Shown: in pieces, positions 13,822-46,365 of the stretch
Layout: each line of letters opens with the position of its first letter
Position numbering within the stretch: the stretch's first letter is position 1
Assembly (NCBI GenBank): GCA_037131575.1
Contig: JBAXQV010000001.1
Location: forward strand, 1 to 47,104
Source: Actinomycetota bacterium
GTDB taxonomy: Bacteria; Actinomycetota; Acidimicrobiia; Acidimicrobiales; Ilumatobacteraceae
Reading direction: 5' to 3'
DNA: 47,104 nt
Notes under the pieces: model-generated
Databases searched by the model: none
Told to the model about the DNA's origin: nothing
The model's input: only the letters and a program-made list of their open reading frames with translations
Made by a program: the position numbers and the translations under genes

Positions 13822-14457
13822 TCAGACCAGCAGGCCCATCCGCTCGGCCTTGCGCACGGCCGAGGCACGATTGGGCACTTCGAGCTTCTTCAGTAGGTGC
13901 GCCACGTGCGTCTTGATGGTCTCGGTCGACACGTACAGCACACTGGCGATCTCGGCGTTGCTCGAGCCCGAGGCGAGCAGCGACAGCACTTCGAGTTCGC
14001 GCATCGACAGCGAGGGTTGGTCGACGTCTTGCCACGATGTGGCCAACAGGGCGAGTGATTGTTCGTCGAGCACACTGGCACCACTGGCCACCGTGCGCAG
14101 CGAATGTGCCAGCGCGAGTGACGGAGTGTCACTGCAGAGCACACCAACGACACCGGCGTTCACTGCGGCCGACACCATCACCAACTGACGCGAATTCACC
14201 AGCATCACGGCGCGGGCCGAGGTCGACAGGCTGCGCAGCTCGCTCATGAGGGTGCGGCAGGCATCGGGTGAAGCAGGTTCGTCGAGCAACACCACGGCAT
14301 ATGGGTGGTCGGCGAGTGCGGGTGCGGCGTCACCGACGGTGGCCACAGCGGCGATCACATCGAAGTCGGTTTCGGCGGCCAGACGCAGGTGCAATGCCTC
14401 ACGCAGCACACTGTGCTGCTGCACGACCACCAGCGTGATCCGGTCAGTGGGGTTCAT
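13822..14457 (-). CDS. LuxR/NarL-family response regulator with atypical receiver domain
   Basis: C-terminal LuxR HTH 'LSMRELEVLSLLASGSSNAEIASVLYVSTETIKTHVAHLLKKL'. N-terminal receiver-like fold with 'VVVQQH' in place of the acidic DD pair. Confidence 0.8.
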   Translation of the reverse strand: MNPTDRITLVVVQQHSVLREALHLRLAAETDFDVIAAVATVGDAAPALADHPYAVVLLDEPASPDACRTLMSELRSLSTSARAVMLVNSRQLVMVSAAVNAGVVGVLCSDTPSLALAHSLRTVASGASVLDEQSLALLATSWQDVDQPSLSMRELEVLSLLASGSSNAEIASVLYVSTETIKTHVAHLLKKLEVPNRASAVRKAERMGLLV

Positions 14458-14752
14458 GGCAGTAACTGTCCCCGGATGTGCGAAGTGAGCAACCATTCCC
14501 AGAGAATCTCACTTTGAGTGGTGGAGGAATCTCCCCGTGTAGTGGATTGCCCACACCAGTATCCCCGAAACAGGGGATAATCGAAGGGTGTACCTGGGGT
14601 CGGTGCAAATGACTCACCCGGAACTTCCCCCGGGGGATTCGAACGACGAAGCTGACTATGTCGACGGCGCATGCCTGAGACCGAGCAGCACAAGTGTCCT
14701 CCGCTGGGGGACACACCAAGAGCCCTGGCGGGGCGCGGAGCAGGAGCACACA

Positions 14753-15640
14753 ATGATGGCGGTCACAGAAGTCACCACGCCTCGGGCGGCAGAGGATTAC
14801 GTCGACGGGAACTCCGAACTGTTCCAGCGTCGCCGCCAGTTGCAAGAGCAGCTGGCCGAGCTCGAGCAGAACCAGGGCGATGCCCGGGTGATCAATCGGG
14901 CGAAGCGTTCGCTCGATGATGTGACTGCCGAAATCGTGCGGTTCAACCTCGGCCTGGTGCGCTCGTACTGCAAGCGTTTCACCTCGAACTCGACCCGTGA
15001 AGATTCGGCCGACTTCGAAGCAGCCGGCCTGCTCGGCCTGATGCGGGCCATCGACAGCTTCGACCCGACGCAGGGCCGCTTCGGCCAGTGGGCCTTCAAG
15101 CCCATCCAGCGTGAAGTGCTGCGTGCGGTGCGCGACGCCGATCACCCCAACGTGAACCTCGGCGACTTCGAGCGCCGCCCGGAGATTTTGCGGGCGTTCC
15201 GTCACCTCCAGGGCGACGACACCCGCTACACCCCCTCGTACGCCGAAGTGGCGGCAGTGGTGGGCGCCACCGTCGACCAGGTGCGTCGTGTCATCACCCC
15301 GCCCCGCCTCGAGTCGGTCGACCAGTCCACGTCCGATGATTCTGATGGCACGCTCGGCGACACCATCGAAAGCGCCACCCCTGGCCCCGAGGCCGTGGTG
15401 GTGTCGGGCATGATGCTGTCGGCCCTGCGCACCTACGGGCTCGCAGCGCTCGACCCCCGTGAGCTGTTCGTCATCGTGCGTCGCTTCGGCCTCGACGGTG
15501 AGCCGGCCGAGAAGCTCGCCGGTATCGGCGAAACCCTCGCCCTGTCGCGTGAAGCGATCCGCCAGATCGAAGCCAAGGCCATCGCCAAGATCCAGCACCC
15601 GATGGTGCTGCGCAAGATCCACACCCACGGTCGTCCCTGA
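14753..15640 (+). CDS. RNA polymerase sigma-70 family factor, group 3 (FliA/WhiG/SigB-like)
   Basis: Region 2 'LVRSYCKRF...DFEAAGLLGLMRAIDSFDPTQGRFGQWAFKPIQREV'. Region 4 HTH 'LAGIGETLALSREAIRQIEAKAIAKI'. ATG 14753 is preceded by GGAGCAGGAG. Confidence 0.85.
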   Translation: MMAVTEVTTPRAAEDYVDGNSELFQRRRQLQEQLAELEQNQGDARVINRAKRSLDDVTAEIVRFNLGLVRSYCKRFTSNSTREDSADFEAAGLLGLMRAIDSFDPTQGRFGQWAFKPIQREVLRAVRDADHPNVNLGDFERRPEILRAFRHLQGDDTRYTPSYAEVAAVVGATVDQVRRVITPPRLESVDQSTSDDSDGTLGDTIESATPGPEAVVVSGMMLSALRTYGLAALDPRELFVIVRRFGLDGEPAEKLAGIGETLALSREAIRQIEAKAIAKIQHPMVLRKIHTHGRP

Positions 15641-15678: not shown

Positions 15679-15716
15679 CAATGGCCGCCGGTTCGCCGGC
15701 GGCCATTGCTCGTTTT
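15679..15716 (+). terminator. Intrinsic terminator of the sigma-factor gene
   Basis: Perfect 13-bp stem CAATGGCCGCCGG/CCGGCGGCCATTG with TTCG loop, followed by CTCGTTTT. Confidence 0.8.
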
Positions 15717-15892
15717 GGTGAGTGGTCGATACGGCCAGCACCGGCCGTGGCACAGCATTTGCCCAGCGTGCACGAGTTTCAGGCGTGATATCCGGGCGAT
15801 CTCCCCGTCACCCGGTTCCCGTCCAGTTCACTCGCCAATCCCCCGTGAAATGGCATCACCAGATCGGCTCTTCCGGACTGTTGATCACGTGA

Positions 15893-15908
15893 GTTCCAAG
15901 GATGGAAC
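15893..15908 (+). promoter_or_regulatory. Leader hairpin presenting AGGA in the loop (candidate CsrA site)
   Basis: GTTCCA-AGGA-TGGAAC. The RNA core CAAGGAUG equals the CARGGAUG core of the CsrA SELEX consensus. It lies 27 nt upstream of ATG 15936, whose SD is GGAGGA. Confidence 0.35.
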
Positions 15909-15935
15909 ACACGGCACACACATCACGGAGGAACC

Positions 15936-16679
15936 ATGGCCCCCCGGTCATTAGAAGCGCCTCCCGAGCCGGTGAGACATTCATCGCTCGGGACATCACC
16001 GCCGCCTACCAAGGCGAAAGGTCAGCCGAAACGGCTGGCCGAGATCTGCAGCCCTTGGGCCGGCAGGCAGTCACCAGCAACATGCCACGAAGAGGCTGCG
16101 CTCATCGAAGAGCTCACCGCACTCGTGGGAGACGACGACACGAACGAGTTTGAACGTCGTGACGTGACTGTGTTGATCACCGCACTGCGCAGCGGTCTCT
16201 CACTTCCTGAAATTCGCGTGCAGGCACCAGGGGTCACCCCGGCCCGTCTGCTTGCGGCTCATCGGGAACTCGAGCGTCGTCGCGCCATCGCCGAAGAGGC
16301 GTGGCGTGTGGTGGAAGCCGAGCCGGGCCGTGAGGCAGTGGTCGACTACGGCATCCTGGCAGGCAAGTTGCTGCCCGCGGTGCTCACTCAGTTGCAGATG
16401 CACATCGACGACGACGAGCGGTTGACCTTCGAGATCGGTCGTGCTGCCGATCAGATCGCCCGTACGTCGCGGCGTGTGCTGATGCTCGAAGACCGAGTCG
16501 CCGACTCGGCCGACGACCCCGAGCGGGCACGTGAACTGGGAACCTTGCTGTACGACGTGTACGGCCACGGTGCCTGGAGCCTCGAGACCTTCCTTCCCCC
16601 TCGGGTAGGAACCCTCGTACCCCTCCGCCTGGCTGCATTGCTGGGCGAAGACCTGACGGCGGTTCGCCGGGTGAGCTGA
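15936..16679 (+). CDS. Hypothetical protein (no recognisable domain)
   Basis: 247-aa ORF. Strong SD (ACGGAGGAACC-ATG). Coding bias is good from about codon 50 onward. The N-terminal ~50 codons have weaker third-position GC and compete with an overlapping frame (15902..16153). Confidence 0.5.
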   Translation: MAPRSLEAPPEPVRHSSLGTSPPPTKAKGQPKRLAEICSPWAGRQSPATCHEEAALIEELTALVGDDDTNEFERRDVTVLITALRSGLSLPEIRVQAPGVTPARLLAAHRELERRRAIAEEAWRVVEAEPGREAVVDYGILAGKLLPAVLTQLQMHIDDDERLTFEIGRAADQIARTSRRVLMLEDRVADSADDPERARELGTLLYDVYGHGAWSLETFLPPRVGTLVPLRLAALLGEDLTAVRRVS

Positions 16680-16730
16680 ATGCTCATTCGACGCGACCTA
16701 CGATCACGGTATGCGAGCTAGCGATCGTCG

Positions 16731-17609
16731 GTGATGGCGGTGCCTGGGCAAACCGAACATACGGCGTGGCTGTTGTTGCCACCCGCAGAGGTTGTGCTCA
16801 GCGCCGCCATCGCACCGACGCCCGATATTCCGCTCGCGTCACTACGCGATGTCGTGGTTCCCATCCACGACGCCGCCGGTGAACTCATCGATTGGACTCT
16901 GGCTCCTGGCGAGATCCAACGCCATGGGCTGGCGCACGACTACGCGTCGTGGCGCCAGACCTGGCGGCGGACCTGGCAGGTGGGGCCCATCACCAATCTG
17001 GTGTCATTGCGTGCCTATGTACGTGAGCTCGACGCCGACCTGGTGGTCGATCTCGACGACGTGTTGGCCCGCACTCTTGCCGCCCACGACGTGGGCGTGT
17101 GGGTGCCCCTCGACCAGTTGGTTCGGCTACGTGATGAGCTGGCAATCACTCGCTTGGCTCTGTCGGTCGACGACCGTACCGGCGTGGGCATCATCGACGA
17201 CATGGCCGACGCAGGGCGCCGAGCCGGCCTGGCTCGCACCTGGGCGGAACCCACTACCGAGGTCATCTTGGCGGCCACTCCCGAAACGGCGGTGATGGTG
17301 CGCCCCAAGGACGATCTGGTGGTGTTGCACGGCGGCCCCGAGTTCGCTTCGTTCGATCATGTCGTGAGCGTCGACATGCGCAACGACCCGGTGATCATCG
17401 GTGATGCGGCGGGTCAGTCGTTCACCCTCGCTGCCGAACTCGCGCGCCCCCTGGCATGGTTGGTGCCGCAGTCGTTGTACTGGCACGTCCGCGCCATTCC
17501 CATCGCCGCCGTGTGGGCGGCTTGGTTTGCTGCGTGGGATGAAGCCATCGGCGTGGCACACGACCTCGAAATCGGCCTCACGGTGAGCAGCCGGTCGTCG
17601 TTCGAATGA
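16731..17609 (+). CDS. Hypothetical protein (no recognisable domain)
   Basis: 292-aa ORF (GTG 16731 or ATG 16734), same strand, 51 nt after the previous ORF. Trp-rich hydrophobic C-terminal segment 'IPIAAVWAAWFAAW'. Confidence 0.5.
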   Translation: MMAVPGQTEHTAWLLLPPAEVVLSAAIAPTPDIPLASLRDVVVPIHDAAGELIDWTLAPGEIQRHGLAHDYASWRQTWRRTWQVGPITNLVSLRAYVRELDADLVVDLDDVLARTLAAHDVGVWVPLDQLVRLRDELAITRLALSVDDRTGVGIIDDMADAGRRAGLARTWAEPTTEVILAATPETAVMVRPKDDLVVLHGGPEFASFDHVVSVDMRNDPVIIGDAAGQSFTLAAELARPLAWLVPQSLYWHVRAIPIAAVWAAWFAAWDEAIGVAHDLEIGLTVSSRSSFE

Positions 17610-17610
17610 C

Positions 17611-18228
17611 GTGTCGGGGGTCGCGGGTGGTGGCGGAGTCACCGTCAAATCACCCGCGGAAATGCGTGCCGAACATGGCGCCGCCGGAGTGCCGGCAGGA
17701 CAGTCTGTACCTGTGTTCGGAGCAAGAAACCTTCAGATCCGCGAGGCCCTCGGTTGCCTCTACGGAGCAATGGCTGCCGTAGTTCGCGACGATCTCGTCG
17801 GCTTCGAACTCCTGGTGGAGGACCTGCGCTTTTCGTTCGAGAATTTCTACGAACTGCTCACCACCATCTCGTTCGCCACGCTCGATCAACTCGATGCCAC
17901 CATCGACGGTTGGCAGCAGCTCACACCCGATGACGGGCGGAGCCTGGCCACCGATCTGTTGTCGTTGGCGAAGCACTACGACATCGCCAGCACCGACGCC
18001 GTGCAAACCGCTGCGTGGTTGCTCGATGCAGTGCGCCGCGGCGACCACAGCCGGGTCATCGCCGACATCGACGGTGCGCGTCGTGTCAGCAGTGACGACG
18101 ACCTCGTCGCCGGTTCCATCGCGTTGCTCACTGCCACGGTGAGCCTGTGGGCACGCCACACGGGCCGCTCCCCTCGCCGTGCCGCAGCCGAGCTGTGCAT
18201 GGGTGCTGCAGTCGACGCTGTTCGCTGA
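17611..18228 (+). CDS. Hypothetical protein (no recognisable domain)
   Basis: 205-aa ORF. The GTG start lies 1 nt after the upstream TGA (17607-17609), implying translational coupling. Predicted mostly helical. Confidence 0.5.
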   Translation: MSGVAGGGGVTVKSPAEMRAEHGAAGVPAGQSVPVFGARNLQIREALGCLYGAMAAVVRDDLVGFELLVEDLRFSFENFYELLTTISFATLDQLDATIDGWQQLTPDDGRSLATDLLSLAKHYDIASTDAVQTAAWLLDAVRRGDHSRVIADIDGARRVSSDDDLVAGSIALLTATVSLWARHTGRSPRRAAAELCMGAAVDAVR

Positions 18229-18297
18229 ATTTTCTGGTTGCCAACCCAGTCGGGTTCCGGACAGTTCCCTGTGTCTACACACCACGGAGGAACACTC

Positions 18298-18633
18298 ATG
18301 GCACCTGGCCGCTCACTCGACGAACTCATCGATCGCACTCCCGATCTTCCCTGGCTCACCAAGGCTGCGTGCGGCGACCTCGAGCTCGATCAGCTCGACC
18401 TGTTCTTCGTGGAAGCCGGCCGCACGATCGCATCGTCGACCGTTGCGCTGTGCCAGAAGTGCCCGGTGCGCCGCGAGTGCCTCGACCACGCCTACCGGCA
18501 CGAGATCATGAGCGGTTACTTCGGTGGTATGTCGCCCGGTCGCCGTCGCGTGCTCAGCCACGAAACGGCCGTAGCCGAGATCGAGCGCGAGATCGCGCTC
18601 AGGTCAGGACACCGAGACGCAGCGCGCGGCTGA
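18298..18633 (+). CDS. WhiB-like (Wbl) iron-sulfur transcription factor
   Basis: Four-Cys pattern 'AACGD...ALCQKCPVRRECL' followed by 'GYFGGMSPGRRR' (G[VI]WGG-like turn plus basic tail). ATG 18298 is preceded by ACGGAGGAAC. Confidence 0.85.
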   Translation: MAPGRSLDELIDRTPDLPWLTKAACGDLELDQLDLFFVEAGRTIASSTVALCQKCPVRRECLDHAYRHEIMSGYFGGMSPGRRRVLSHETAVAEIEREIALRSGHRDAARG

Positions 18634-19297
18634 CAGCGTGAGTTCGGTCGCGGGCATGGAGTTTCTCTTGCACATGAGTGAGATGGGTCTTCACCGTCTC
18701 GGCGCCGATGCCGAGCTGTTCGCCGATCTCGGCGTTGGTGAAGCCTTCGGCAGCGAGGCCGAGCACAGAGAGCTCGCGGGCACTGAGCGGGCGCAGGCTG
18801 CGTCGCTGCTCGCTGGCCTGACGAGTTTGCAGCATCGCGGTGATGGCGCGTGGGTGCATGAACCGCTCTCGGGCGGCCACGGTGCGCACGGCGTTGCCCA
18901 ACGCGTCGACCGAGCACGTCTTCGGCACCACACCCAAGCAACCGTGCTCCACCGATGCCGCCACCGTGGTTGGCGACAGGTCGGATGTGAACACCAGCAC
19001 CGCAGCATCGGGGTGCCCGCCCAACAGGCCGAGCACTTCAGCGAAGGCTGTGCCGCGTCCGCCCATGGTGATCTCGATCATCACTACATCGGGAAGGTGC
19101 TGTTGGTAGGCACGAACCAGACGACGTGGGTCGGTGACGGTGCCACACACGTCGATTCCGAGCGCAGCGAGATACTCGGCCGCCCCACGGGCCGCCACCA
19201 CCTGATCGTCGGCCAGCAGCACCCGCAGCCGAACATCGGGATCAGCCACGAACGAAAGTATAGAGGCACCGTCGCGGTGCTTCCCGATGCCTCCCAC
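18599..19297 (-). CDS. LuxR/NarL-family response regulator with Glu at the phospho-acceptor position
   Basis: Receiver 'RVLLADDQ', 'DVVMIEITMGG', 'VLVFTSD', 'GVVPKT'. C-terminal LuxR HTH 'LSARELSVLGLAAEGFTNAEIGEQLGIGAETVKTHLTHVQEKL'. Alternative GTG start at 19249. Confidence 0.8.
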   Translation of the reverse strand: MGGIGKHRDGASILSFVADPDVRLRVLLADDQVVAARGAAEYLAALGIDVCGTVTDPRRLVRAYQQHLPDVVMIEITMGGRGTAFAEVLGLLGGHPDAAVLVFTSDLSPTTVAASVEHGCLGVVPKTCSVDALGNAVRTVAARERFMHPRAITAMLQTRQASEQRRSLRPLSARELSVLGLAAEGFTNAEIGEQLGIGAETVKTHLTHVQEKLHARDRTHAVSRALRLGVLT

Positions 19298-19326: not shown

Positions 19327-20586
19327 GTGACCGGTACGATGGACAACGTGGCGTCGAACATATACCTCGGTCGGCAGCCCATTCTCGATCGTCGCGGCCG
19401 AACCTATGCGTTCGAACTGCTCTATCGCGATGGCGACCAGAACCAGGCGTTCTTCGCCAACCCCGACGACGCCACTCGACGAGTCATCGAGGCCGCCATC
19501 ATCGAATGGGGCTTCGATCGGCTCATCGGCGATCGGCTCGGTTTCATCAACGCAGCCGGCGGCTTGTTGCACACCGGCCTGCTGTCGATCCTTCCGGTCG
19601 ATCGCACCATCGTCGAAGTGCTCGAGCACGTGTTGCTCGATGCCGAGATGGTGCAGGTCATCAGAGACGCGTACGCCACCGGGTTGCGGTTCGCACTCGA
19701 CGACGTAGTCGATCTCGATCGGCCAGGCCTCACCGACATCGCTCCGCTCATCGATGTGGTGAAACTCGATGTGCTGGCCATCCCCACCGACGACCTGGCG
19801 GGCATGGTGGCTCGCAGCCGCGAGATGTTCCCCAAGGCCCTTCTCTTGGCCGAGAAGGTGGAAGACCCCGCCAAGTACGCGGCGTGCATGCACTTGGGGT
19901 TCGACCTGTTTCAGGGCTACTTCTTCGCCAAACCCGAACTGCTCGAGCGCTCGGGCCGGCCCAACAACGTGTCGACAGCCATTTTGCTGTTGGCCGAAGT
20001 GAGCCGGGCCGATGTGGAGATCGACCGTGTCGAGTCGCTCATCTCGGCCGATCCCAGCCTGGCCTACGCCATCTTGCGCCTCGTGAACTCGAGTTCATTC
20101 GGTTTGAACGTGCGGGTCCAGTCGATCAGGCACGCCATCGTGATGGTGGGCTTCGTGCAGGTACGCCAACTCGCCGTACTGCTCACCATGGCCAAGAACA
20201 ATCGGGCCATCAGCGATGAGGTCATCGTGCTGGCCGCAGCACGGGCCCAGATGGCGTCGAAGTTCGCTGCACAGCCCGATGGCGGCGTCGCGGCCGACCC
20301 GGCAGGTGCATTCACCACCGGCCTGCTGTCGGTCATCGACACTGTGTTCGGTGCGCCCATGGACGAGCTACTCACTGGTCTTCCGCTTCCCGCCGATGTG
20401 CGCTCGGCACTGCTCGAGCAGAGCGGTCCGCTGGGCAAGGTGATGGATGCCGTGTATGCGTTCGAACAGGCCGATACGGACACGCTCGAACAGCTCATGC
20501 CCGGCCAGGGCGAATTCATCCGCGAGGTGTACGCCGCCAGCGTTGCGTGGGCCGAGAGCGTGAGGCGCGAGCTCCTCACCACCTGA
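19327..20586 (+). CDS. EAL-HDOD domain signalling protein (COG3434-like)
   Basis: 'YLGRQPILDRRGRTYAFELLYR' and 'AEKVEDP...GFDLFQGYFFAKP' (EAL fold). C-terminal HDOD block 'ILRLVNSSSFGLNVRVQSIRHAIVMVGFVQVRQLA'. Alternative ATG at 19339. Confidence 0.85.
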   Translation: MTGTMDNVASNIYLGRQPILDRRGRTYAFELLYRDGDQNQAFFANPDDATRRVIEAAIIEWGFDRLIGDRLGFINAAGGLLHTGLLSILPVDRTIVEVLEHVLLDAEMVQVIRDAYATGLRFALDDVVDLDRPGLTDIAPLIDVVKLDVLAIPTDDLAGMVARSREMFPKALLLAEKVEDPAKYAACMHLGFDLFQGYFFAKPELLERSGRPNNVSTAILLLAEVSRADVEIDRVESLISADPSLAYAILRLVNSSSFGLNVRVQSIRHAIVMVGFVQVRQLAVLLTMAKNNRAISDEVIVLAAARAQMASKFAAQPDGGVAADPAGAFTTGLLSVIDTVFGAPMDELLTGLPLPADVRSALLEQSGPLGKVMDAVYAFEQADTDTLEQLMPGQGEFIREVYAASVAWAESVRRELLTT

Positions 20587-21197: not shown

Positions 21198-21290
21198 GTG
21201 GTGAGAAGAACTGTCCGGTGTGAGAGGGCGCCGCGCAAGAAACCTCGACGTCGAACTGACCTCGCCTGCACGAGATTTCTCGGCGGGTGG

Positions 21291-23474: not shown

Positions 23475-24023
23475 GTGAGGCCGTATCGGGCGGGGCTACC
23501 TGCGGTTTCGACGCGACTCCGGACTGTCAATGTCGTGGAGCCGGCTGAAGACCTGTCGCAACAACTCTGGACAATGCGCGAGTTACTCGAGCAGATGGTC
23601 TACAAGCTCGAAATGCAGGGCTTGCTTCTGGCTGCCGGGCGTACCCGCTGGATGCCAACGCTCAACGGCGAGATCGAGACGTTGATGGAGGCAGTGAACG
23701 CCGTCGATGCTGCTCGTGGCCAGGCGTCTGCTCGGTTGGCACGGAAGTACGGCTTGCCCCCCACCGTGAGCCTCACCGACCTGCTCCAGTACGTCGAGCA
23801 CCCGTGGGGCCAGTTGTTGGCGCAACACCGGTTGCAACTCCGTTCGCTGCAGAGCGAGATCGAAGACGTGTCGAGCGCCAACCAGGAACTCGCACGCCGT
23901 GGCCTGATGCGCTCGCGTGAAATCATCGCCAGCCTCGGCGACCACAGTGTCGACGTCTACAACCCGCGTGGGTACACCGCGCCGCTCACCGTTTCGGCGT
24001 TGCGCCTGGATCGGACGGTCTGA
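23475..24023 (+). CDS. flgN: FlgN-like flagellar export chaperone
   Basis: Helical protein with a FlgN-like pattern ('MRELLEQMVYKLEMQGLLLAAG...NQELARRGL'), located directly upstream of flgK-flgL. Start uncertain (GTG 23475, GTG 23535 or ATG 23574). Confidence 0.55.
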   Translation: MRPYRAGLPAVSTRLRTVNVVEPAEDLSQQLWTMRELLEQMVYKLEMQGLLLAAGRTRWMPTLNGEIETLMEAVNAVDAARGQASARLARKYGLPPTVSLTDLLQYVEHPWGQLLAQHRLQLRSLQSEIEDVSSANQELARRGLMRSREIIASLGDHSVDVYNPRGYTAPLTVSALRLDRTV

Positions 24024-26429: not shown

Positions 26430-26711
26430 TCAGCGGTGGTCTTCGCCGGTCACTTCGGCCACGATCGCCCGCATCGTGGCGGTGACGAGCACCTTGTTGA
26501 TGATGCCGAGGGCGATCCACACGATGAAGGCCACGCCGAACGAGCGGATGAGGGCGAAGTCGACGCCCACACTCGACGACACGGCGTCGATGAGCTTCGA
26601 ACCCGTGAGCAGCGCCGAGACAGCGACCACGATGGCCAGCCGCCATGGGGCGAGTGGCCCGGGAAGGCGTTCGGCTTTGGCGGCCTTCTTGCTCACGCCT
26701 GAGCCTCCCAT
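26430..26711 (-). CDS. Small membrane protein, last gene of the flhA operon
   Basis: 93 aa with two hydrophobic segments ('WRLAIVVAVSALL', 'FGVAFIVWIALGII'). ATG 26711 has a GAGG SD. The alternative GTG 26696 overlaps the upstream stop as GTGA. Confidence 0.5.
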   Translation of the reverse strand: MGGSGVSKKAAKAERLPGPLAPWRLAIVVAVSALLTGSKLIDAVSSSVGVDFALIRSFGVAFIVWIALGIINKVLVTATMRAIVAEVTGEDHR

Positions 26712-27853
26712 TCGGCTTCTGCCTCGACCTCTTGCTGGTCAGCGGTACGCAGCACCACTCGCACCGATACGCGGCGCACACCGTCTTCACGGGTGAGCGA
26801 CTCGATGAGCTGGTCGGTGGCGGCAACGGCGAGTTCCACCTGGCGTTGGGCCAGCGCCGATGTTTCGGTTGCAGTGGGGCTCACGATGGTGTCGATGAGT
26901 TCGACCGTCCGTGCGGCTGCCTCGGTTGCAGGGGTTTGCGAGAACGTCATGATTCGCGAGCCGACGGCGGGAAGCGAGGCCGTGCCGGGTTCGCTGGTGG
27001 CAGTGTCGCCGGTGGCCAGTTCGGTCGTGGCCAGTTCGGTAATGGCCAGTTCGGTCGTGTCGGTGACCGCCTCCGACATGCGTGCGGCCTCAGCGTCGGC
27101 GTCGGCACGGCGCTGCTTGATGGTCGACAACACGCGCGGTGAGGCAGTGAGTGCCTGCAGTTCCTCGATGATGCTCTCCACGCGCAACAGGCTCGGCGAC
27201 GCTTCCACCGCGGGTTGTGCCGGTTCGACGTCGACGATCGGTGTCGCCGACGCACGCGAACCCACGGTATGAGCTGTTGCCCGGTCGACCCGCTCGAATG
27301 TGGCGGGTTGCACCGAGCGGCGCAGTTCATCGGTGAGTTGTTGACGGCGCACTTCCACCGATTCGCGTTGTTCGATGGGAACGTAGGCGTCGATCGCCAT
27401 GTTGGGACTTCCCACCAGGTCGTAGTCGCTCGGCGGCTCGTACCACGATGCCGGTTCCTGGCGCAGTTGCGCCCGGCTCTCGGTGCGTGAGGCAGCACCC
27501 GACATTGCCATGCGCTGGCTGGTGAGCTGGCTGGTGTCGACTGCCGCGTCGTCGAGGCCGAGTCGTGCCCGCGCCTCGTCGCGATCGGCTTCCCACTGGG
27601 CCCGCTCGTCGGTGCCCGACGAGTTGATCAGCCGTTCGAGCGCGTCTTCGATGGTCTCGCTTTCAAGCGTCACCTCCACTTCGATGCCGAGGTCGGCGGC
27701 GAAAAAGCCGCCGATGCCACCGCGGCGGATGCGGTGGGCGGCGATCACCTTCACGCGCGAGCCGAGCGACTGCTCGGCCAGGGCGACGGCATCTTCAAGG
27801 GTGGGGCCGCGGAACTTCATCGTGTCGGAACGGTCAGTTGTTTGCGTACGCAT
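26693..27853 (-). CDS. FlhF N-terminal-domain-like protein lacking an SRP-type GTPase domain
   Basis: 'MKFRGPTLEDAVALAEQSLGSRVKVIAAHRIRRGGIGGFF...IEVEV' resembles the FlhF N-terminal region, and the gene sits directly after flhA. No Walker A/G1-G4 motif anywhere in the 386 aa. ATG 27853 has a GAGGAG SD inside the flhA 3' end. Confidence 0.5.
   Translation of the reverse strand: MRTQTTDRSDTMKFRGPTLEDAVALAEQSLGSRVKVIAAHRIRRGGIGGFFAADLGIEVEVTLESETIEDALERLINSSGTDERAQWEADRDEARARLGLDDAAVDTSQLTSQRMAMSGAASRTESRAQLRQEPASWYEPPSDYDLVGSPNMAIDAYVPIEQRESVEVRRQQLTDELRRSVQPATFERVDRATAHTVGSRASATPIVDVEPAQPAVEASPSLLRVESIIEELQALTASPRVLSTIKQRRADADAEAARMSEAVTDTTELAITELATTELATGDTATSEPGTASLPAVGSRIMTFSQTPATEAAARTVELIDTIVSPTATETSALAQRQVELAVAATDQLIESLTREDGVRRVSVRVVLRTADQQEVEAEAEWEAQA
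27013..27057. repeat. 3 x 15-bp tandem repeat inside the FlhF-like gene
   Basis: TGGCCAGTTCGGT(CG/AA) x3. It encodes (T/I)TELA x3 on the minus strand. Confidence 0.85.
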
Positions 27854-29993
27854 GGCGGTACTCCTCAGGGAAGTCGGTGGTGGTGGTGTTGTCGAGATCG
27901 ATGTTGGCGATGACGTCGATGTTCAGGTGGTCGCCGAGTTCGGCGTACGACACCACCATCACCGACGGCACATTCGGTTTCAGCAGACGGCTCAGGGCCG
28001 GCCGCAGCGGGCCCGAGCACACGAGCACGGGGGTGGTGCCGCGGTGTGCCGACCGGGCAACGAGTTCGTTGAGATCGTTCACCAGCACGTCGGCCTGCTC
28101 GGGGCGAAGTTCGAGCTGCGTCTGGCCGTCCACCAACCGCAGTCCGGCGAGCATGCGATTCTCGGTGGAGGGCACCAGCGTGACCACGGTGAGCGTGCCC
28201 TCCACAGCCTGAGCGGTGGTGATGGCGGGCCCCAACTCCACGCGGGCCGCCTCGACCAGCGCTTCGAGCGTGCGCACCGTACGGGCACGATCGCTGATCG
28301 CTTCGAGAATGCGCACGAGGTCGCGGATGGGGATGCCGTCGTCGAGCAAGGCACCCAGGACACGCTGCACTTCGCCGGTGGTGACGCCGATGGCCACGAG
28401 GTCGTCGACGACCTGTGGGTCGTGGGCGCGTACACCGTCGAGCAGTGCCTTCACATCGCTGCGGCTGAGCAGGCGACCGGCGCGGCGTCGCACCACTTCG
28501 GCCAGATGGGTCACGATGAGCGTCGACCGATCGACCACGGTGTTGCCCATGATCTCGGCCTGCACCTGGAACTCGGCCGGCACCCAGCGGGCGGCGAGAC
28601 CGAACACTGGCTCGCGTACATCGTCACCGGGCAAGCCGTCGAGCACATCGCCGATGGCCAGCACTCGGCCAGCAGGCGCGGTGCCACGGCCCACTTCCAC
28701 GCCATGCACGCGAATCACGTAGGTGCTGGTGGGCAGTTCGCCCGAGTCGCGGGTACGGATCGACGGCATCACGAAACCGAGTTCGGCAGCGATCTTGCGG
28801 CGCAAGGCCGATACGCGGTCGAGCAGGTCGCCGCCGCTGCCGGTGTCGACCAGCGAGATCAGGTCGAAGGCAATGCTCAGCTCGAGTGGTTCCATCCGGT
28901 TGTCGGTGGCCATCTGCTGCGGCGACGGCGGTGCTTGCTCTTCCTCCATCTGAGGCATCGCCACAGGTACATCCAGTTCGTCGTCCTTGGGCAGGCGGTT
29001 CGCCACCATCACCAGGGTGATGCCCACCAGTAGGAACGGAATCTTCGGCATGCCGGGGATGATCGACATCACCAACACCACCACGCCTGCTGCGCGGAGC
29101 GCGGTGCGCTGCCGACGGAACTGGGCGAACACATCGGAACCGAGGTCGGCGCCGCCTGCTGCGCGGGTGACGATGAGGCCAGCCGAGATCGACACCAGCA
29201 GCGCGGGAATCTGCGACACCAAGCCGTCGCCGATGGTGAGCAGCGAGAACTTCTGAATGGCCTCACCCACCGACATGTGCATCTGCACGACACCCATGAG
29301 GAATCCGCCGATGAGGTTCACGGCGGTGATGACGAGGCCGGCGATGGCGTCGCCCTTCACGAACTTCGAGGCACCGTCCATCGCGCCGTAGAAGTCGGCT
29401 TCATCGGCCACTTCCTTACGACGCTTGCGAGCTTCGTCGTCGCCGATCACACCCGCGCTGAGGTCGGCGTCGATGGCCATCTGCTTGCCGGGCATGGCGT
29501 CGAGGGTGAAGCGGGCGGTCACTTCAGCCACGCGGCCCGAACCGTTCGAGATGACGACGAACTGCACGAGCGTGAGGATGAGGAAGATCACGAGGCCCAC
29601 GATGAGGCTGCCACCCACCACGATGGAGCCGAAGGTCTTGATCACATCACCGGCATGTCCGTTGGTGAGCACGGCGCGAGCGGTGGCCACGTTGAGGCCC
29701 AGGCGGAAGAGGGTGACCACCAGCAGCAGCGATGGGAACGAACTGAAGTCGAGGGCCCGCTTCACGTTCATCGACACGAGCAGGATGATGATGGCCGTCG
29801 AGAGGTTGGCGACGATGAGTACGTCGAGCACAGCCGCCGGAAGCGGGAGAATCATGACTGCAACCACCAGCACTACGGCTGCTGGGAGCATGATTTGGCC
29901 CATGCGGCTCCGCTCCACGCGGTCTCCATTCGGTCGGTCGGTTGGTATTTCTCTCGGGCGTCCGAAAGTCACTTGCGCACTTGGCGATGTCAC
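27834..29993 (-). CDS. flhA: Flagellar export gate protein FlhA
   Basis: 719 aa. 'FPSLLLVVTLFRLGLNVATAR', 'FVKGDAIAG' and a large cytoplasmic C-terminal domain, all typical of FlhA/SctV. GTG start 29993 (alternative ATG 29903). Confidence 0.95.
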   Translation of the reverse strand: MTSPSAQVTFGRPREIPTDRPNGDRVERSRMGQIMLPAAVVLVVAVMILPLPAAVLDVLIVANLSTAIIILLVSMNVKRALDFSSFPSLLLVVTLFRLGLNVATARAVLTNGHAGDVIKTFGSIVVGGSLIVGLVIFLILTLVQFVVISNGSGRVAEVTARFTLDAMPGKQMAIDADLSAGVIGDDEARKRRKEVADEADFYGAMDGASKFVKGDAIAGLVITAVNLIGGFLMGVVQMHMSVGEAIQKFSLLTIGDGLVSQIPALLVSISAGLIVTRAAGGADLGSDVFAQFRRQRTALRAAGVVVLVMSIIPGMPKIPFLLVGITLVMVANRLPKDDELDVPVAMPQMEEEQAPPSPQQMATDNRMEPLELSIAFDLISLVDTGSGGDLLDRVSALRRKIAAELGFVMPSIRTRDSGELPTSTYVIRVHGVEVGRGTAPAGRVLAIGDVLDGLPGDDVREPVFGLAARWVPAEFQVQAEIMGNTVVDRSTLIVTHLAEVVRRRAGRLLSRSDVKALLDGVRAHDPQVVDDLVAIGVTTGEVQRVLGALLDDGIPIRDLVRILEAISDRARTVRTLEALVEAARVELGPAITTAQAVEGTLTVVTLVPSTENRMLAGLRLVDGQTQLELRPEQADVLVNDLNELVARSAHRGTTPVLVCSGPLRPALSRLLKPNVPSVMVVSYAELGDHLNIDVIANIDLDNTTTTDFPEEYRHAYANN

Positions 29994-30085
29994 GGACGAT
30001 CACAACTGTTCGCAGCAAGCGTCGATTGTCGTGAAGGTGTCTCTCGATCCACGAGGGCGTTCGGCGCAGCAGACAGGAGGTCACC

Positions 30086-30553
30086 ATGCTGCTAGAAACC
30101 ACAAGATTCGGTGTCGTCGAGGTCGACGAGGCCGAGGTGTACGCGGTGCCGGGAGGTATTCCCGGTTTCCCCGAGATGAAGCGAGTTGCTCTGCTCGGTG
30201 CAGGCAACGTGCCCGGTCATCCGCCGCTCGAGAATCAGCATTCGTTGTACTGGATGCACGATCTCGACGATGAGAACCTGGCATTCATGTGCGTCGTGCC
30301 GTGGGTTGCATTCCCCGAGTACGACTTCGACATCGACGACGAAACCCTCGGTGTCGAGGATCTCGCCGATGTGCGTGTGCTCACCCTTGTGAGCGTGCGT
30401 CGTGAGGACGGTGTGGGGCAACTCACCACCAACCTGCGGGCGCCCATCGTGGTCGACACACGCAAACAGCGGCTCCAGCAGATCATCCTCAACGATTCGC
30501 GTTGGCCCATCCGGGCGCTGGTGACCGTCCTCGTGTCCACCGAGGTGCGGTGA
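30086..30553 (+). CDS. fliW: Flagellar assembly factor FliW
   Basis: '[23 protein letters not shown]...[19 protein letters not shown]...[20 protein letters not shown]' matches the FliW family. SD AGGAGG. Followed by csrA. Confidence 0.9.
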
Positions 30554-30807
30554 TGTTGGTCTTGGCTCGCCGCGTCGGCGAGAACATCCGTATCGGAGAC
30601 GACATCATCGTGACCGTCCTCGAATTGAGCCGCGACCAGGTGCGCATCGGTATCCGCGCCCCCCGGTCGGTGACCGTGCACCGCGAAGAGGTGTACGAGG
30701 AGATCATGGCTGCCAACCGTGAAGCCGCCGGCCCATCAGCCGACGACTTGGTAGGCGTGGCCGGAGTGATCATGCCGGTCATCGGCGGACTGCCAACTCG
30801 CAAGTAG
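30553..30807 (+). CDS. csrA: Carbon storage regulator CsrA (RNA-binding translational regulator)
   Basis: '[51 protein letters not shown]' is the canonical CsrA fold sequence. The ATG overlaps the fliW stop (TGATG). About 30-aa C-terminal extension. Confidence 0.9.
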
Positions 30808-36459: not shown

Positions 36460-37701
36460 TCAGCGGCCGATACGCACGACTTCTTGCAAGATTTCGTCAG
36501 AGGTGCTGATCACGCGAGCGTTGCCTTGGAAGCCGCGCTGAGCGATGATGAGCTTGCTGAACTCCTCAGCGAGGTCGACGTTCGACATTTCGAGCGTGCC
36601 GGCGCTGATGTTGCCGCGGCCACCCGCCGCTGCCGGGGCGATCTGCGCAATACCCGAGTTACCGGTTTCACGCCACGCTCCGCCCACTCGCTCGAGACCT
36701 TGCTGGTTGGCAAACGTGGCCACGGCCACCTGGCCGAGTTGGAGCGACTTGCCGTTCGAGAACACGCCCATGATGGCGCCACCGTTGCTCACGCTGAACG
36801 ACTGCAAGGTGCCCGACAGCGCCCCGTCTTGGCTCACCACGCCCACCGACGTGGAACTGCCGTACTGCGTGATCCGTGCCGAGGCGCCGGTGGCGCCGAG
36901 GTCGATGGTGACGGCGCCAGGCATACCGGGAATGAGGCCTGCGGCAATCGACATGGTGTGGCCGGTCGGCGTGGTGAGTTCACCGGTGTTCGCATCGAAG
37001 GCGAGGGCGCCGTTGGTGAGCGCAACCGCGGTGGCGGGCGAGCCGTAGCTGGCGGTAGCAGTCCACGAGTTGGCAGCGGCCTTGGTGTACGTGATGTTCA
37101 ACTGCACCGGGGCACCTTGAGCGGTGTACCCGGTGACCGTGGAACTCACCGCATCGCCCACCGCGGCAGAGGCGCTGAGGTTGCCCTTCACGGCGATGCT
37201 TTTGGTCTGTACGGGGGCCATGGCGCTGCCGAGAGGAATCTGCAACTTGCTGGTGGGCCCGTTGGCGTCGATCGTTCCGGTGTTGTCGGCTTGCCAGCCG
37301 ATCACGTATGCGCCGTCGGCGGTAGACAGGTTGCCGGCGACATCGAGTGTGAAGGCCCCGCCGCGGGTGTATTGCTGGGCGGTACCGTTCTGGATGACGA
37401 AGAAGCCGTCACCCTGGATGGCCATGTCGGTGCTGTTGCCGGTGCGCTGCAGCGCGCCCTGTGAGAACGACTGGGTGGTGGCGGCAAGGCGCACACCCAA
37501 ACCCACCTGGGCTGGGTTGGTGCCGGCCACCACGCCACTGGGGTCGCCAGCCGACAGCGTTTGGCTGAGGACGTCGGAGAACACGACGTTCGACGACTTG
37601 AAGCCGGGGGTCGACACGTTGGCGATGTCGTTGCTCACCACATCGAGCATGAGCTGGTGGTTCTTCATACCGGAGATGGCGCTTGACATGGAGCGAATCA
37701 T
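36460..37701 (-). CDS. flgE: Flagellar hook protein FlgE
   Basis: 'SAISGMKNHQLMLDVVSNDIANVSTPGFK' N-terminus and 'LEMSNVDLAEEFSKLIIAQRGFQGNARVISTSDEILQEVV' C-terminus. Confidence 0.9.
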   Translation of the reverse strand: MIRSMSSAISGMKNHQLMLDVVSNDIANVSTPGFKSSNVVFSDVLSQTLSAGDPSGVVAGTNPAQVGLGVRLAATTQSFSQGALQRTGNSTDMAIQGDGFFVIQNGTAQQYTRGGAFTLDVAGNLSTADGAYVIGWQADNTGTIDANGPTSKLQIPLGSAMAPVQTKSIAVKGNLSASAAVGDAVSSTVTGYTAQGAPVQLNITYTKAAANSWTATASYGSPATAVALTNGALAFDANTGELTTPTGHTMSIAAGLIPGMPGAVTIDLGATGASARITQYGSSTSVGVVSQDGALSGTLQSFSVSNGGAIMGVFSNGKSLQLGQVAVATFANQQGLERVGGAWRETGNSGIAQIAPAAAGGRGNISAGTLEMSNVDLAEEFSKLIIAQRGFQGNARVISTSDEILQEVVRIGR

Positions 37702-37769
37702 GGGTGGTTCCTTTGTGCTGGTGAAAGAGAGAGATCGATGGGTTGTTGGAGATGAAGGGTGACGAGCGG

Positions 37770-38291
37770 TCAGCTAGCTGCCGCGCCGCCCGGGGCTGCG
37801 GCGATCGAGCGCACCATTTCGAGGGGCACATCGAAGGTGCCGGCATGAACGACCGTGTTGGTGCCGTCGAAACTCACCGAGGTGGCGATGGCCGACTTCA
37901 GCGTGCCGTCCACATCGGGGAAGGTGATCTGCTTGCCCACCAGCGAGCCGCCGAGCGACAGCCGGTTGGCGGCGCCGCTACTGGTGAGCAGGGTGGAGAT
38001 CTCATTGAGCTTGTCGACCACCGACAGTTGGGCCGATTGCGAGACGAGCTGACTCGAGTCCATCGGCTTGGTGGGATCTTGGTACTTGAGCTGGGCGACC
38101 AGCAGCTTCAGGAACGCATCGCGGTCGAGCAAGCCACCGGGCATGGCCGTGGTGCCGCTGGTCTTCGTACCTGTTGACGAATTGGCCCCGGCAGCGGTCG
38201 ATGTCGACGAACCGGTGCTGGTGGCGGGTGCTGGCGCTGCGACGGTAGAGCCGCCTGATGCGCCTACTGCGGTGATCGGATTGACAGACAT
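37770..38291 (-). CDS. flgD: Flagellar hook cap/assembly protein FlgD
   Basis: 'LDRDAFLKLLVAQLKYQDPTKPMDSSQLVSQSAQLSVVDKL' is the FlgD signature. SD GAGGAG. Confidence 0.9.
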   Translation of the reverse strand: MSVNPITAVGASGGSTVAAPAPATSTGSSTSTAAGANSSTGTKTSGTTAMPGGLLDRDAFLKLLVAQLKYQDPTKPMDSSQLVSQSAQLSVVDKLNEISTLLTSSGAANRLSLGGSLVGKQITFPDVDGTLKSAIATSVSFDGTNTVVHAGTFDVPLEMVRSIAAAPGGAAAS

Positions 38292-38318
38292 GGTGTGTCT
38301 CCTCGGAAGTGTTTCGGT

Positions 38319-39848
38319 TCAGATCCGCACATCGAGTCCGCTCATCGGAGCGGTTCGAGTGGGGGTCGACGGAGTGGATGAGGGCGATGTGCTGCCTCGA
38401 GGGCCGGTGTTGACACCGGGTGCAGCCGATTGCGCAGTGTTGCGCCGCTCGGTGGGCGCATTGCCCCGACGGTCGCCCGCTTGGCCGCTGTTGGGGTTCT
38501 GCGGCTGGTTGATGTCGAGTGAACCCACCTTGGTGCCGGTGGATTCGAGTTCGCGCTGGAGCGCTGCACGGTGGTCGGCGAGCAACCCTCGGGTGGCGGC
38601 CTCGCCGGCGGTGAGGGTGAGATGGAGTTCACCAGCGGCTTGATGTGCTTGCAGGGTGAGTGGGCCGAGGCCTTCGTCGGACAGGTCGATCTTCATCGGG
38701 CCCGTGGCGGAGGCGCCCATGGCCAAACGTTCACGCGAGGCCTCGGGTGCTGCCGGGCGGGGCTGCTGGGTGGTTTCACCACTGCGCACCGAACTGGGCC
38801 GGGCCGCGGCTGCACTGCCGGTAGGCGTCGCGGTCGTTGCGGCCGGGGTGGTCGACGACGCTCCGTCGATGGTGGTTGCCCGACGCGCAGCGGTAGTTGT
38901 GGGTGCAGCCGTGGTTGGCGCCCCCGTGGCAGCGCGCTCACCGTCGCCGTTCGCGGCCATGGTGGCGAATGCAGCCTCAGCAGTGGCCCGCTGGGTGGCG
39001 GTGTCGGCGGCGGGTCCGTCGGTGCGAGCGGTCGGTACGCGATCGGTGGGTGCCACCGTGGGGGCAGAGCTCGATGAAGCGGTGGTGGTGGTCGCGATAT
39101 CGGCGCCGGTGCCGCTGCCGGGTGCAGCTGACGAGATGCTGGGAGCATCCGGCTCGGCGGCCGCCGCGTCGCGAACCGCAGCAGCGTTCGGGGTGGGGTT
39201 CGCCGGCAGTTCCACGGCGGCCGCGGCCGTGGCGAGCACGTTGGCGGCATCGACGCTCGGTGTGCTGGCGGCAGCCTCATTCGGTACCGGACTGGCCGGC
39301 TGTGCCGACGCCTGCTGCACATCGGTGGCCGGCGTAACGTTGTTCACCCAGGGGTTCAGCGAGGTGGCGTTGGCGGCGGCATCGACGGCAGCGGGCGTCT
39401 CTGCGGTCGCCGTGTTCGCCGTGTTCGCTGCGGTCGCCGTGTTCGCCGCGGCCTCGGGTGCCTGGGCGATGGTGGGGGGTACTACAGCGACCATTGTCAA
39501 TGCATCTACGGGGTCGGCTGCCTCGTTGGCGCCGCCTTGCCCCTGGTTCGCACGAGCGAGGCGTCGTCGCCGTGCGCTCGCCGTATCGGTGGCAGCATCG
39601 GTGCCGGGCTCAGCCCGTGCGTCGTCGTCGATCGATCCGGATGATTGATCGACGTACCCCTCATCGCGACCGGCATCGGTGGCCCGGCGGTCGTTGATGC
39701 GACGGTCGGTCGAATCGAACTGTTCCATGGTCTTCGAGAACAGTTGGTCGAAGCTCACTCCATCGGTCGACGGGCGACGCGACGGCGTCGACCCGGAGGA
39801 CACCGAGGTGGCATCGACGGTTGCGAGCGATCCGGAGATCGTGGTCAT
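38319..39848 (-). CDS. fliK: Flagellar hook-length control protein FliK-like
   Basis: 509 aa from ATG 39848 (ATGA overlap with the upstream stop). Very Ala/Thr/Pro-rich central region. C-terminal Flg_hook-type block 'IDLSDEGLGPLTLQAHQAAGELHLTLTAGEAATRGLLADHRAALQRELESTG'. Confidence 0.7.
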   Translation of the reverse strand: MTTISGSLATVDATSVSSGSTPSRRPSTDGVSFDQLFSKTMEQFDSTDRRINDRRATDAGRDEGYVDQSSGSIDDDARAEPGTDAATDTASARRRRLARANQGQGGANEAADPVDALTMVAVVPPTIAQAPEAAANTATAANTANTATAETPAAVDAAANATSLNPWVNNVTPATDVQQASAQPASPVPNEAAASTPSVDAANVLATAAAAVELPANPTPNAAAVRDAAAAEPDAPSISSAAPGSGTGADIATTTTASSSSAPTVAPTDRVPTARTDGPAADTATQRATAEAAFATMAANGDGERAATGAPTTAAPTTTAARRATTIDGASSTTPAATTATPTGSAAAARPSSVRSGETTQQPRPAAPEASRERLAMGASATGPMKIDLSDEGLGPLTLQAHQAAGELHLTLTAGEAATRGLLADHRAALQRELESTGTKVGSLDINQPQNPNSGQAGDRRGNAPTERRNTAQSAAPGVNTGPRGSTSPSSTPSTPTRTAPMSGLDVRI

Positions 39849-46268: not shown

Positions 46269-46365
46269 CGCTGCCGCCAAGTGGTGATCGTCACAGTGAC
46301 AACAGTCCTGAATGTTGCCGATGTGCAAGCAGGTTCTTCGGCGTCACGCTGGAGGACGACGTCGT

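Follow-up and report, generated by a model that had tools for sequence, protein, structure and literature searches.

The window analysed here, a 47,104-nucleotide stretch of DNA from an Actinomycetota bacterium with a GC content of roughly 65%, carries three consecutive open reading frames on one strand (ORF1, ORF2 and ORF3), followed by a gene for a WhiB-like transcription factor and by a complete flagellar locus that includes fliW-csrA and occupies positions 20.6–47 kb. Our tentative conclusion is that ORF1–ORF2–ORF3 form a genuine operon of flagellated Acidimicrobiia that belongs to the motility regulon, most likely as a regulatory module that operates with a neighbouring sigma factor, with WhiB and with regulators of cyclic di-GMP (c-di-GMP). 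In an earlier note on this DNA, the trio had been put forward as a module, not described before, with a regulatory or accessory part in this flagellar system. This proposal is supported by synteny, by a shared promoter class and by the structure of the ORF1 leader; which of the two roles applies is a matter that we infer. Of the outcomes that the note had named as fatal to its proposal, neither confident matches of all three proteins to unrelated families nor a lack of conservation and flagellar linkage of the trio was found.

A conserved gene trio in motility loci

The gene layout described in the earlier note is present in the window (Table 1). The three same-strand ORFs encode 247, 292 and 205 amino acids, the junction between the last two reads TGA-c-GTG and thus leaves a single nucleotide between them, and the whiB start codon lies 69 nt past the ORF3 stop codon. 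Upstream of the trio is a sigma factor gene, recognized by Pfam through its regions 2, 3 and 4, that has its own intrinsic terminator. Two atypical response regulators had been placed downstream of the trio. This holds for one of them (RRb), whereas the other (RRa) lies upstream of the sigma gene.

When species genomes of GTDB were scanned, 20 loci were obtained, in which gene order was read by tblastn with the window proteins. A single order is kept throughout: RRa(−), sigma gene(+), ORF1, ORF2, ORF3, whiB(+) and RRb(−). The order is identical around the most divergent members, found at locus L021 of our numbering and on a JGI contig. RRb is followed by the EAL-HDOD gene and fliL-motB-motA-flbD/flgN-flgK in 12 loci (window included) and by CheA-CheW-MCP in 6 loci; in the others the flank is too short for the downstream genes to be judged. 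The neighbours that never change are regulators; the structural ones are flagellar genes in some loci and chemotaxis genes in others. The neighbourhood comparison suggested in the earlier note thus places the trio, in unchanged order, next to whiB and the sigma gene in some 20 loci from metagenome-assembled genomes (MAGs), and flagellar or chemotaxis genes follow wherever the flank is long enough.

All three ORFs exhibit the GC pattern of coding DNA (high at codon position 1, low at position 2 and high at position 3). Homologues number 69 for ORF1 (40–71% identity), 54 for ORF2 (37–65%) and 14 for ORF3 (45–72%), and all reside in uncultured Acidimicrobiia (Ilumatobacteraceae and Acidimicrobiaceae MAGs, many of them lake-derived).

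A promoter class of the motility regulon

The motif CCGGACWGT, previously noticed upstream of both ORF1 and whiB, is found at both genes and corresponds to the −10 part of a motility promoter class. It occurs four times in the window, always in intergenic DNA and in the correct orientation, before ORF1, whiB, flgN and fliL, and other loci have it at corresponding positions. An alignment of 31 sites reveals, 13 nt upstream of the motif, TTGC(G)C, a −35 signal that is independent because it was not used in site selection. The promoter architecture therefore comprises a −35 element (TTGCGC), a 16-nt spacer and a −10 element (GACWGT) preceded by CCG.

A position weight matrix (PWM) trained without the window's own sites gives five hits in the window at a threshold of at least 15 bits, compared with 0.35 expected, and all five are correctly oriented upstream of genes. 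Weaker hits occur at flbD, flgK and flgB (23335(−), 24011(+) and 46301–46312(−)). The RRa and fliL sites are conserved in other loci, the flgN geometry is identical in L001–L005 and L011, and a pattern of ATTTT-(G/C)TTGCGCA-N12-CCGGACRRT is recognizable before whiB in 17 of the 19 loci with ORF2-ORF3-whiB, L011 and L016 having given other sites. At the −10 position of ORF1, other loci carry GGGGACGGT, TCGGACTGT or CCGGACTGT. The near-identical initiation contexts of ORF1 and whiB, also pointed out previously, are borne out: TTCCGGACWGTT and ACGGAGGAAC precede both genes, and a 12-mer common to the two upstream regions has three matches in the window against 0.23 expected.

In a second clade of loci, described below, the same −10 element stands before whiB, VanY, EAL-HDOD, CheA and fliW, and the flagellin gene has a variant −10 (CCGAACGGT / CGGAACGGT) with TTGCAC or TTGCGC 13 nt upstream. 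On these sequence comparisons, TTGCGC-N13-CCGGACWGT is the predicted promoter class of the motility regulon, conserved in two clades and distinct from the sigma-28 consensus. A distance of 7 nt separates the motif from the start codon at both RRa and flgN, which implies leaderless mRNAs and marks the motif as a −10 element; both genes appear to be leaderless in the window as well as in other loci. VanY in L026 and L027 and ORF3 in L027 likewise look leaderless.

The neighbouring sigma factor is classed by NCBIfam as RpoD-like and not as a member of FliA/WhiG: it scores 47.4 bits against FliA_WhiG (TIGR02479), for which the cut-off is 189.6, and about 100 bits against RpoD-like models. This classification fits a promoter class that combines a sigma-70-like −35 element with an altered −10 element. 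The sigma gene itself carries no site of the class. Upstream of ORF1, a poor −35 region is combined with a conserved box, which suggests that this promoter depends on an activator. The box has a direct AATCAC repeat and lies in the −35 place; it may be an activator site, perhaps for RRa or RRb.

A flagellin-like leader upstream of ORF1

CsrA recognizes GGA in hairpin loops and occludes the Shine–Dalgarno (SD) sequence (PMC13443453, PMC4894983, PMC6529632), and in Bacillus subtilis it takes part in the Hag–FliW–CsrA partner switch (PMC6529632). A hairpin with GGA in its loop is present in all 18 ORF1 leaders, and the loop GGA lies 32–38 nt before the ATG. At least six different stem sequences occur, with pairing maintained by compensatory changes: GTTCCA/TGGAAC in the window, and GTCTTTCCA/TGGAGAGAC, TCTCC/GGAGG, CGCA/TGCG, GCCAC/GTGGC with covarying extensions, and GCCACA/TGTGGC elsewhere. 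In shuffled leaders, a GGA-loop hairpin arises at a frequency of 7% (stems of at least 4 bp) or 2% (at least 5 bp). The SD motif is invariant (TCA.GGAGGA in alignment A7, CA(C/T)GGAGGA), and the near-identical ACGGAGGAAC stands before whiB.

All 18 leaders therefore combine a loop GGA with an SD GGA 10–60 nt away, as in hag. When 346 kb were scanned on both strands, this two-site layout was found at ORF1 in 18 of 18 loci and in only seven other places. The flagellin leaders of L026 and L027, from genes confirmed by Pfam, served as a positive control and carry CCCAA-CGGA-TTGGG followed by ACACGGAGGT; the FliS leader in L026 has a layout similar to that of ORF1. These features give the ORF1 leader the layout of CsrA-repressed flagellin mRNAs, and we predict that it is bound by CsrA, with FliW and CsrA presumed to be the trans-acting factors. 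A search of Rfam with the window and with the ORF1 leader matched no known RNA family. In locus L017 (near position 11745), the whiB leader also contains a GGA-loop hairpin (GTGCCC-AGGAC-GGGCAC) before a GGAGGA SD, and whiB may be under CsrA control in some genomes.

Three soluble proteins of no detectable known family

As the earlier note had it, no family can be assigned to the trio: ORF1–3 have no match in Pfam or NCBIfam (E ≤ 1 in both), PADLOC or PHROGs, and none of the three contains a transmembrane-like segment. No Pfam domain is carried by the homologues of the three proteins, among them every member of the ORF3 family and the distant ORF2 members scanned, and PDB sequence searches with ORF1–3, as single sequences and as profiles, give nothing significant. 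The structure comparisons proposed earlier, made with AlphaFold2 (AF2) models of ORF1 and ORF2, also retrieve no known fold. For ORF2, the best Foldseek matches have E = 0.13 in PDB (template modelling (TM) score 0.16) and E = 0.11 in BFVD; for ORF1, the best match in PDB has E = 1, and TetR-like matches are noise (TM < 0.22). TM is at most 0.27 in every match listed for either protein. Thus, the trio consists of conserved soluble proteins of no detectable known family, the ORF1 and ORF2 models have no fold match, and we regard the protein families, as well as the fold of ORF2, as new.

ORF1 occurs only in the clade of the window, with no profile match in the second clade. Its AF2 model is all-alpha (predicted local distance difference test (pLDDT) 83), with a helical bundle as the body and an almost invariant C-terminal tail, LYDVYGxGAWS...RVGxxVPLR (alignment A2). 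The N-terminal 40–45 amino acids or so are poorly conserved and modelled with low confidence (block pLDDT 47–53), and this variable stretch accounts for the low GC content at third codon positions (GC3) at the start of the gene. An earlier concern about GC3 in the first codons is thus correct in that GC3 is low over the first 40 or so, but the start is not misplaced, as the N-terminal M-S/A-T-R is conserved. Judged from the model, this probably disordered N terminus is the one feature of the trio that would be compatible with export by the flagellar type III system.

ORF2 is conserved from end to end, has many invariant Trp, Pro and Arg residues and contains the motifs WRxxW and GxGxVD...RxGLARxW. 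It is a soluble alpha/beta protein of an unannotated family (AF2 pLDDT 89.6, predicted TM score 0.83). An exhaustive search with an ORF2 profile hidden Markov model (HMM) returned 170 representative clusters, all of 250–350 amino acids and none with fusions, so that ORF2 founds a family whose confidently predicted fold is without match in PDB or BFVD. ORF3 is probably all-alpha, as judged from its sequence, and always lies directly 3′ of ORF2; in 10 of 19 loci the two genes overlap or stand apart by no more than 25 nt. Its start is uncertain, and either GTG 17611 or ATG 17662 may be used; a homologue with 97% identity is called from ATG 17662, and conservation begins at about residue 33 (alignment A3).

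Several identities were tried and rejected. The helix-turn-helix (HTH)-like stretch that had been seen in ORF1 did not withstand comparison, as hhalign of A2 against GerE regulators gives a probability of 0.09% and Pfam finds no GerE match. The corresponding values are 0.11% for ORF1 against the sigma factor (region-4 HTH) and 1.4% against FlgN, a bona fide copy of which is encoded separately in the window. For ORF3, a lead to FliG (PDB 5tdy_B) reaches only E = 0.66/0.76 in PDB and 0.14% in hhalign of A3 against the window FliG, and the value against FliS is 0.4%, with a bona fide FliS encoded separately in L026. Likenesses of ORF1 to ORF3 as paralogues and of ORF3 to HDOD were also rejected. 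ORF1–3 have no match to FlgM (PF04316), being proteins of 188–292 amino acids of which ORF1 and ORF2 fold confidently. They lack the RsiG motif E(X)3S(X)2R(X)3Q(X)3D, even as a relaxed regular expression, and the D/NxSxxG motif and Pfam match of PilZ c-di-GMP receptors. They are also unrelated to PtxA, which has a RibD_C domain, and TrxA of Actinoplanes.

Regulators adjoining the trio

Orthologues of the sigma factor (57–86% identity) adjoin homologues of ORF2 in each of the two clades. WhiB matches PF02467 at 52.5 bits (cut-off 23.6, E = 7e-14) and has cysteines at C25, C52, C55 and C61 in the arrangement C-Xn-C-X2-C-X5-C. RRa, which is syntenic in all loci, matches GerE and, weakly, Response_reg in Pfam, and RRb matches both families. 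In the RRa receiver, QQ replaces the acidic DD pocket (VVQQH), and in RRb a Glu takes the place of the phospho-acceptor Asp (VVxIE; both in alignment A4). Because of these replacements, which are conserved across loci, the two receivers are predicted to be unable to work conventionally and to act independently of phosphorylation. Both regulators are restricted to the clade that contains ORF1.

The EAL-HDOD gene is co-conserved with ORF2-ORF3 in both clades. Its EAL domain scores 29.5 bits, just below the Pfam cut-off of 31.3. The signature residues ELLYR, N, EVLE, DD, KLD, AEKVE and QGY can be recognized by eye, and the protein may be an active c-di-GMP phosphodiesterase. Just upstream of RRa, a conserved gene pair, one gene for a CheY-like receiver of a single domain and one for a protein of about 162 amino acids without annotation, is present in L008, L010–L012, L016, L017, L019 and L021 (for example, L021 5897–6747(−)); the window does not have this pair.

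A second clade and distant relatives of ORF2

In metagenomes we followed ORF2-like proteins of roughly 30% identity (cluster '4', alignment A6), which define a second clade (L024 and L026–L040). There the neighbourhood reads whiB(+), EAL-HDOD(−), ORF2-like(+), ORF3-like(+), with EAL-HDOD orthologues adjoining ORF2-like genes in L026–L036 and with ORF3-like genes directly after the ORF2-like genes (E = 1e-5 to 4e-11 with an HMM of A3). Downstream there is either VanY(−), the sigma orthologue(−) at 57–61% identity and flagellin, or CheA-CheW-MCP-CheY. In L027, flhA, fliW, csrA, flhB and fliP are nearby. The exception to this motility linkage is L024, in which the 8-kb upstream flank is metabolic and the contig ends soon after the sigma gene. 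ORF1, RRa and RRb were looked for in second-clade loci and are absent. This pattern indicates that ORF2–ORF3 are an older core that, in motility loci, goes together with whiB, EAL-HDOD and the sigma gene, so that ORF1 and the two response regulators would have joined together in the clade of the window.

More distant ORF2 members include those at L022 10001–10849 and L023 10001–10831 (E around 1e-6), one of which is from Jatrophihabitans. At two distant loci with annotated neighbours, ORF2 again lies beside transcription factors (MarR or LuxR). Small genes upstream of the ORF2 homologues in L022 and L023 were considered as relatives of ORF1 or ORF3 and rejected; one is MarR-like by eye, and the other resembles a small hydrophobic membrane peptide. 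Between the ORF3-like and sigma genes of the second clade lies a gene for a VanY-type peptidase (L024 8950–9705(−), L026 2105–2830(−) and L027 9864–10601(−)). In L026 and L027 it has a leaderless promoter of the motility class, and its product may be a flagellar peptidoglycan hydrolase.

A model for the operon and its alternatives

Later-branching Actinomycetota have flagella without FlgM, and the controlling partner of the sigma factor and the late-stage mechanism are unknown (PMC12871210, PMC10746217). ORF1–3 are good candidates for such a flagellar checkpoint because they are conserved genes of no known family or fold that are combined with a sigma factor and WhiB, a motility-type promoter and a flagellin-like leader of CsrA type. 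In our model, the neighbouring sigma factor would drive the motility regulon through its promoter class, and CsrA would repress translation of ORF1, or of ORF1–3, until flagellin export frees FliW (PMC6529632). The ORF1–3 proteins would therefore be made late, would then modulate transcription that depends on the sigma factor and WhiB, and possibly on c-di-GMP, and would replace the FlgM checkpoint that later-branching actinobacteria lack. A specific form of this model makes ORF1–3 the missing assembly checkpoint itself, a three-protein modulator (anti-sigma factor or co-factor) of the RpoD-like sigma factor and WhiB that is gated by FliW–CsrA, perhaps with c-di-GMP input through EAL-HDOD. The cell would thereby register flagellin export as changed transcription of the TTGCGC-N13-CCGGACWGT regulon. 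We consider this specific form unlikely.

Several observations weigh against a regulatory module as we propose it. The PWM gives the ORF1 promoter, which has no −35 consensus, fewer than 9 bits, and that the neighbouring sigma factor reads this promoter class is something we infer. RNAalifold finds no structure in a MAFFT alignment of the leaders, because loops of 4–7 nt put the stems out of register, so that support for the hairpin comes from analysis of each sequence with shuffles; ORF2-like leaders in the second clade lack a consistent CsrA-type layout. Signatures of anti-sigma factors, HTH, PilZ and RsiG are absent from ORF1–3, and contacts between these proteins and the sigma factor, WhiB, EAL-HDOD or the response regulators are postulated from gene context. 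The distant ORF2 relatives in L022, L023 and L025 lie outside motility loci, and the ORF2 fold itself is therefore not specific to the flagellum or to motility. Finally, a flagellin-like CsrA leader would suit a structural or chaperone protein of the filament stage equally well.

The main rival explanation is that ORF1–3 serve the flagellum or the chemosensory apparatus as late-class structural proteins or as accessories of assembly or export (for example, a chaperone of the filament stage, a placement factor or a factor associated with the motor), that they are made together with flagellin because they are required at that stage, and that they have no transcriptional role. We judge this rather unlikely. 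In its favour, in both clades the trio is embedded in flagellar and chemotaxis loci, the promoter class is common to structural genes, and the ORF1 leader is laid out like those of flagellin and FliS. Furthermore, FlhF, FlaG and other accessory proteins are missing from later-branching actinobacterial flagella (PMC10746217). However, it is the regulators that are always adjacent to the trio and the structural genes that vary, and distant homologues of ORF2 are found away from motility genes, with MarR or LuxR regulators as neighbours. The three proteins also have no transmembrane segment and do not resemble FliG, FliS or FlgN, the last two of which exist separately.

A less probable explanation is that ORF2 and ORF3 constitute a generic ligand-binding or enzymatic module (related to small molecules, redox or c-di-GMP) whose link to motility is indirect, with ORF1 as an unrelated, clade-specific addition. 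The breadth of the ORF2 family, three distant members of which are found outside motility loci, would fit this explanation, as would its conserved WRxxW and GxGxVD...RxGLARxW motifs and the co-conservation of EAL-HDOD with ORF2. In contrast, no known ligand-binding or catalytic fold is detected, motility linkage holds in two clades wherever the flank is long enough (L024 excepted), and the operon's promoter and leader connect it with the flagellar regulon. The explanation that the ORFs are untranslated high-GC artefacts, a worry of the earlier note, has virtually no chance of being correct: GC3 is only moderate (0.70–0.77) and long antisense ORFs overlap the trio, but full-length protein conservation at 37–72% identity across dozens of genomes in two clades, the coding GC pattern, the confident AF2 folds and the conserved SD and start codons establish all three as real genes.

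Relation to known systems

The likeness of the ORF1–3 module to known systems is one of logic, not of homology. As in the FlgM/sigma-28 system of Salmonella and Bacillus, a module linked to a sigma factor lies in the flagellar regulon, and its output would follow the state of assembly. FlgM, however, is small (about 100 amino acids) and largely disordered, whereas ORF1–3 lack a FlgM domain, are 2–3 times larger and are folded. In addition, sigma-28 promoters read TAAA-N15-GCCGATAA, unlike the TTGCGC-N13-CCGGACWGT class found with the RpoD-like sigma factor here, and coupling to assembly would be translational through CsrA rather than through export of an anti-sigma factor. The Hag–FliW–CsrA system (PMC6529632) is similar in that fliW-csrA is present and the ORF1 leader carries a loop GGA and an SD GGA, as does sister-clade flagellin. 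In contrast to that system, the putative target is an operon for three uncharacterized proteins and not flagellin, and CsrA binding is predicted.

The RsiG–WhiG–(c-di-GMP) system of Streptomyces and its relatives (PMC12871210) resembles the locus in that a sigma factor descended from motility control, or linked to it, shares a circuit with a c-di-GMP enzyme, a WhiB-like protein and orphan regulators of atypical NarL type (compare BldM and WhiI), but ORF1–3 have neither the RsiG motif nor detectable homology to RsiG, and the sigma factor falls below the FliA/WhiG cut-off. In Actinoplanes missouriensis, as summarized in PMC13083903, the orphan response regulator TcrA and alternative sigma factors (FliA1–3) drive all flagellar units; these sigma factors belong to the FliA family, unlike the one described here, and no equivalent of ORF1–3 is reported for that system. 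With its sigma factor, WhiB, c-di-GMP enzyme and atypical regulators of NarL type next to flagellar genes, the locus resembles the whi/bld circuit of Streptomyces, and it may show this circuit as it was when still controlling motility. For the open question of flagellar control, the locus thus offers three conserved but uncharacterized proteins, a motility promoter class, regulators and a predicted CsrA-gated leader.

Feature coordinates and further observations

Table 1 Features of the operon, its regulatory elements and neighbouring genes in the window
Feature	Position	Strand	Description
ORF1	15936–16679	+	247 amino acids
ORF2	16731–17609	+	292 amino acids
ORF3	17611–18228	+	205 amino acids from GTG 17611, or 188 from ATG 17662
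whiB	18298–18633	+	WhiB-like [4Fe-4S] transcription factor; PF02467; start ATG 18298
Conserved box upstream of ORF1 promoter	15826–15840	+	GTTCACTCGCCAATC; elsewhere GTCACCCGCGAATCAC-N4-AATCAC; 17 loci lined up
ORF1 −10-like element	15873–15881	+	CCGGACTGT, exact motif; −35 weak
ORF1 leader hairpin	15893–15908	+	GTTCCA-AGGA-TGGAAC, GGA in loop; candidate CsrA site 1
ORF1 Shine–Dalgarno region	15924–15933	+	CACGGAGGAA; candidate CsrA site 2, overlapping the SD
whiB promoter	18238–18265	+	TTGCCA 18238–18243, 13 nt, CCGGACAGT 18257–18265; PWM 22.1, highest in the window
flgN-flgK-flgL −10-like element	23519–23527	+	CCGGACTGT; PWM 20.6; 7 nt before GTG 23535
RRa −10-like element	14465–14473	−	GGGGACAGT, GGTTGC about 16 nt upstream; PWM 19.2; 7 nt before ATG 14457
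fliL −10-like element	21210–21218	−	CCGGACAGT; directly upstream of fliL; PWM 16.9
fliW-csrA −10-like element	29992–30000	+	ACGGACGAT, TTGCGC upstream; PWM 16.4
Sigma gene	14588–15640	+	RpoD-like alternative sigma factor; Pfam r2, r3, r4
Intrinsic terminator 3′ of sigma gene	15679–15708	+	13-bp stem with 10 GC pairs, then T-run CTCGTTTTGG
RRa	13822–14457	−	NarL/LuxR-type atypical orphan response regulator
RRb	18599–19297	−	NarL/LuxR-type atypical orphan response regulator
EAL-HDOD protein	19327–20586	+	c-di-GMP phosphodiesterase type; Pfam HDOD and EAL
fliW and csrA	30086–30807	+	Pfam FliW E = 4e-26, CsrA E = 5e-24

The rest of the window (20.6–47 kb) contains no second sigma gene. Between flgL and flhA lie two more ORFs in which Pfam finds no domain (26430–26711(−) and 26693–27853(−), of 93 and 386 amino acids). 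In the region from about 37700 to 40540, between flgE and fliJ, GC skew is strong (+0.15), AT skew is negative and a quick gene call returned no clean ORF; this region probably holds low-complexity genes of flgD/fliK type on the minus strand.

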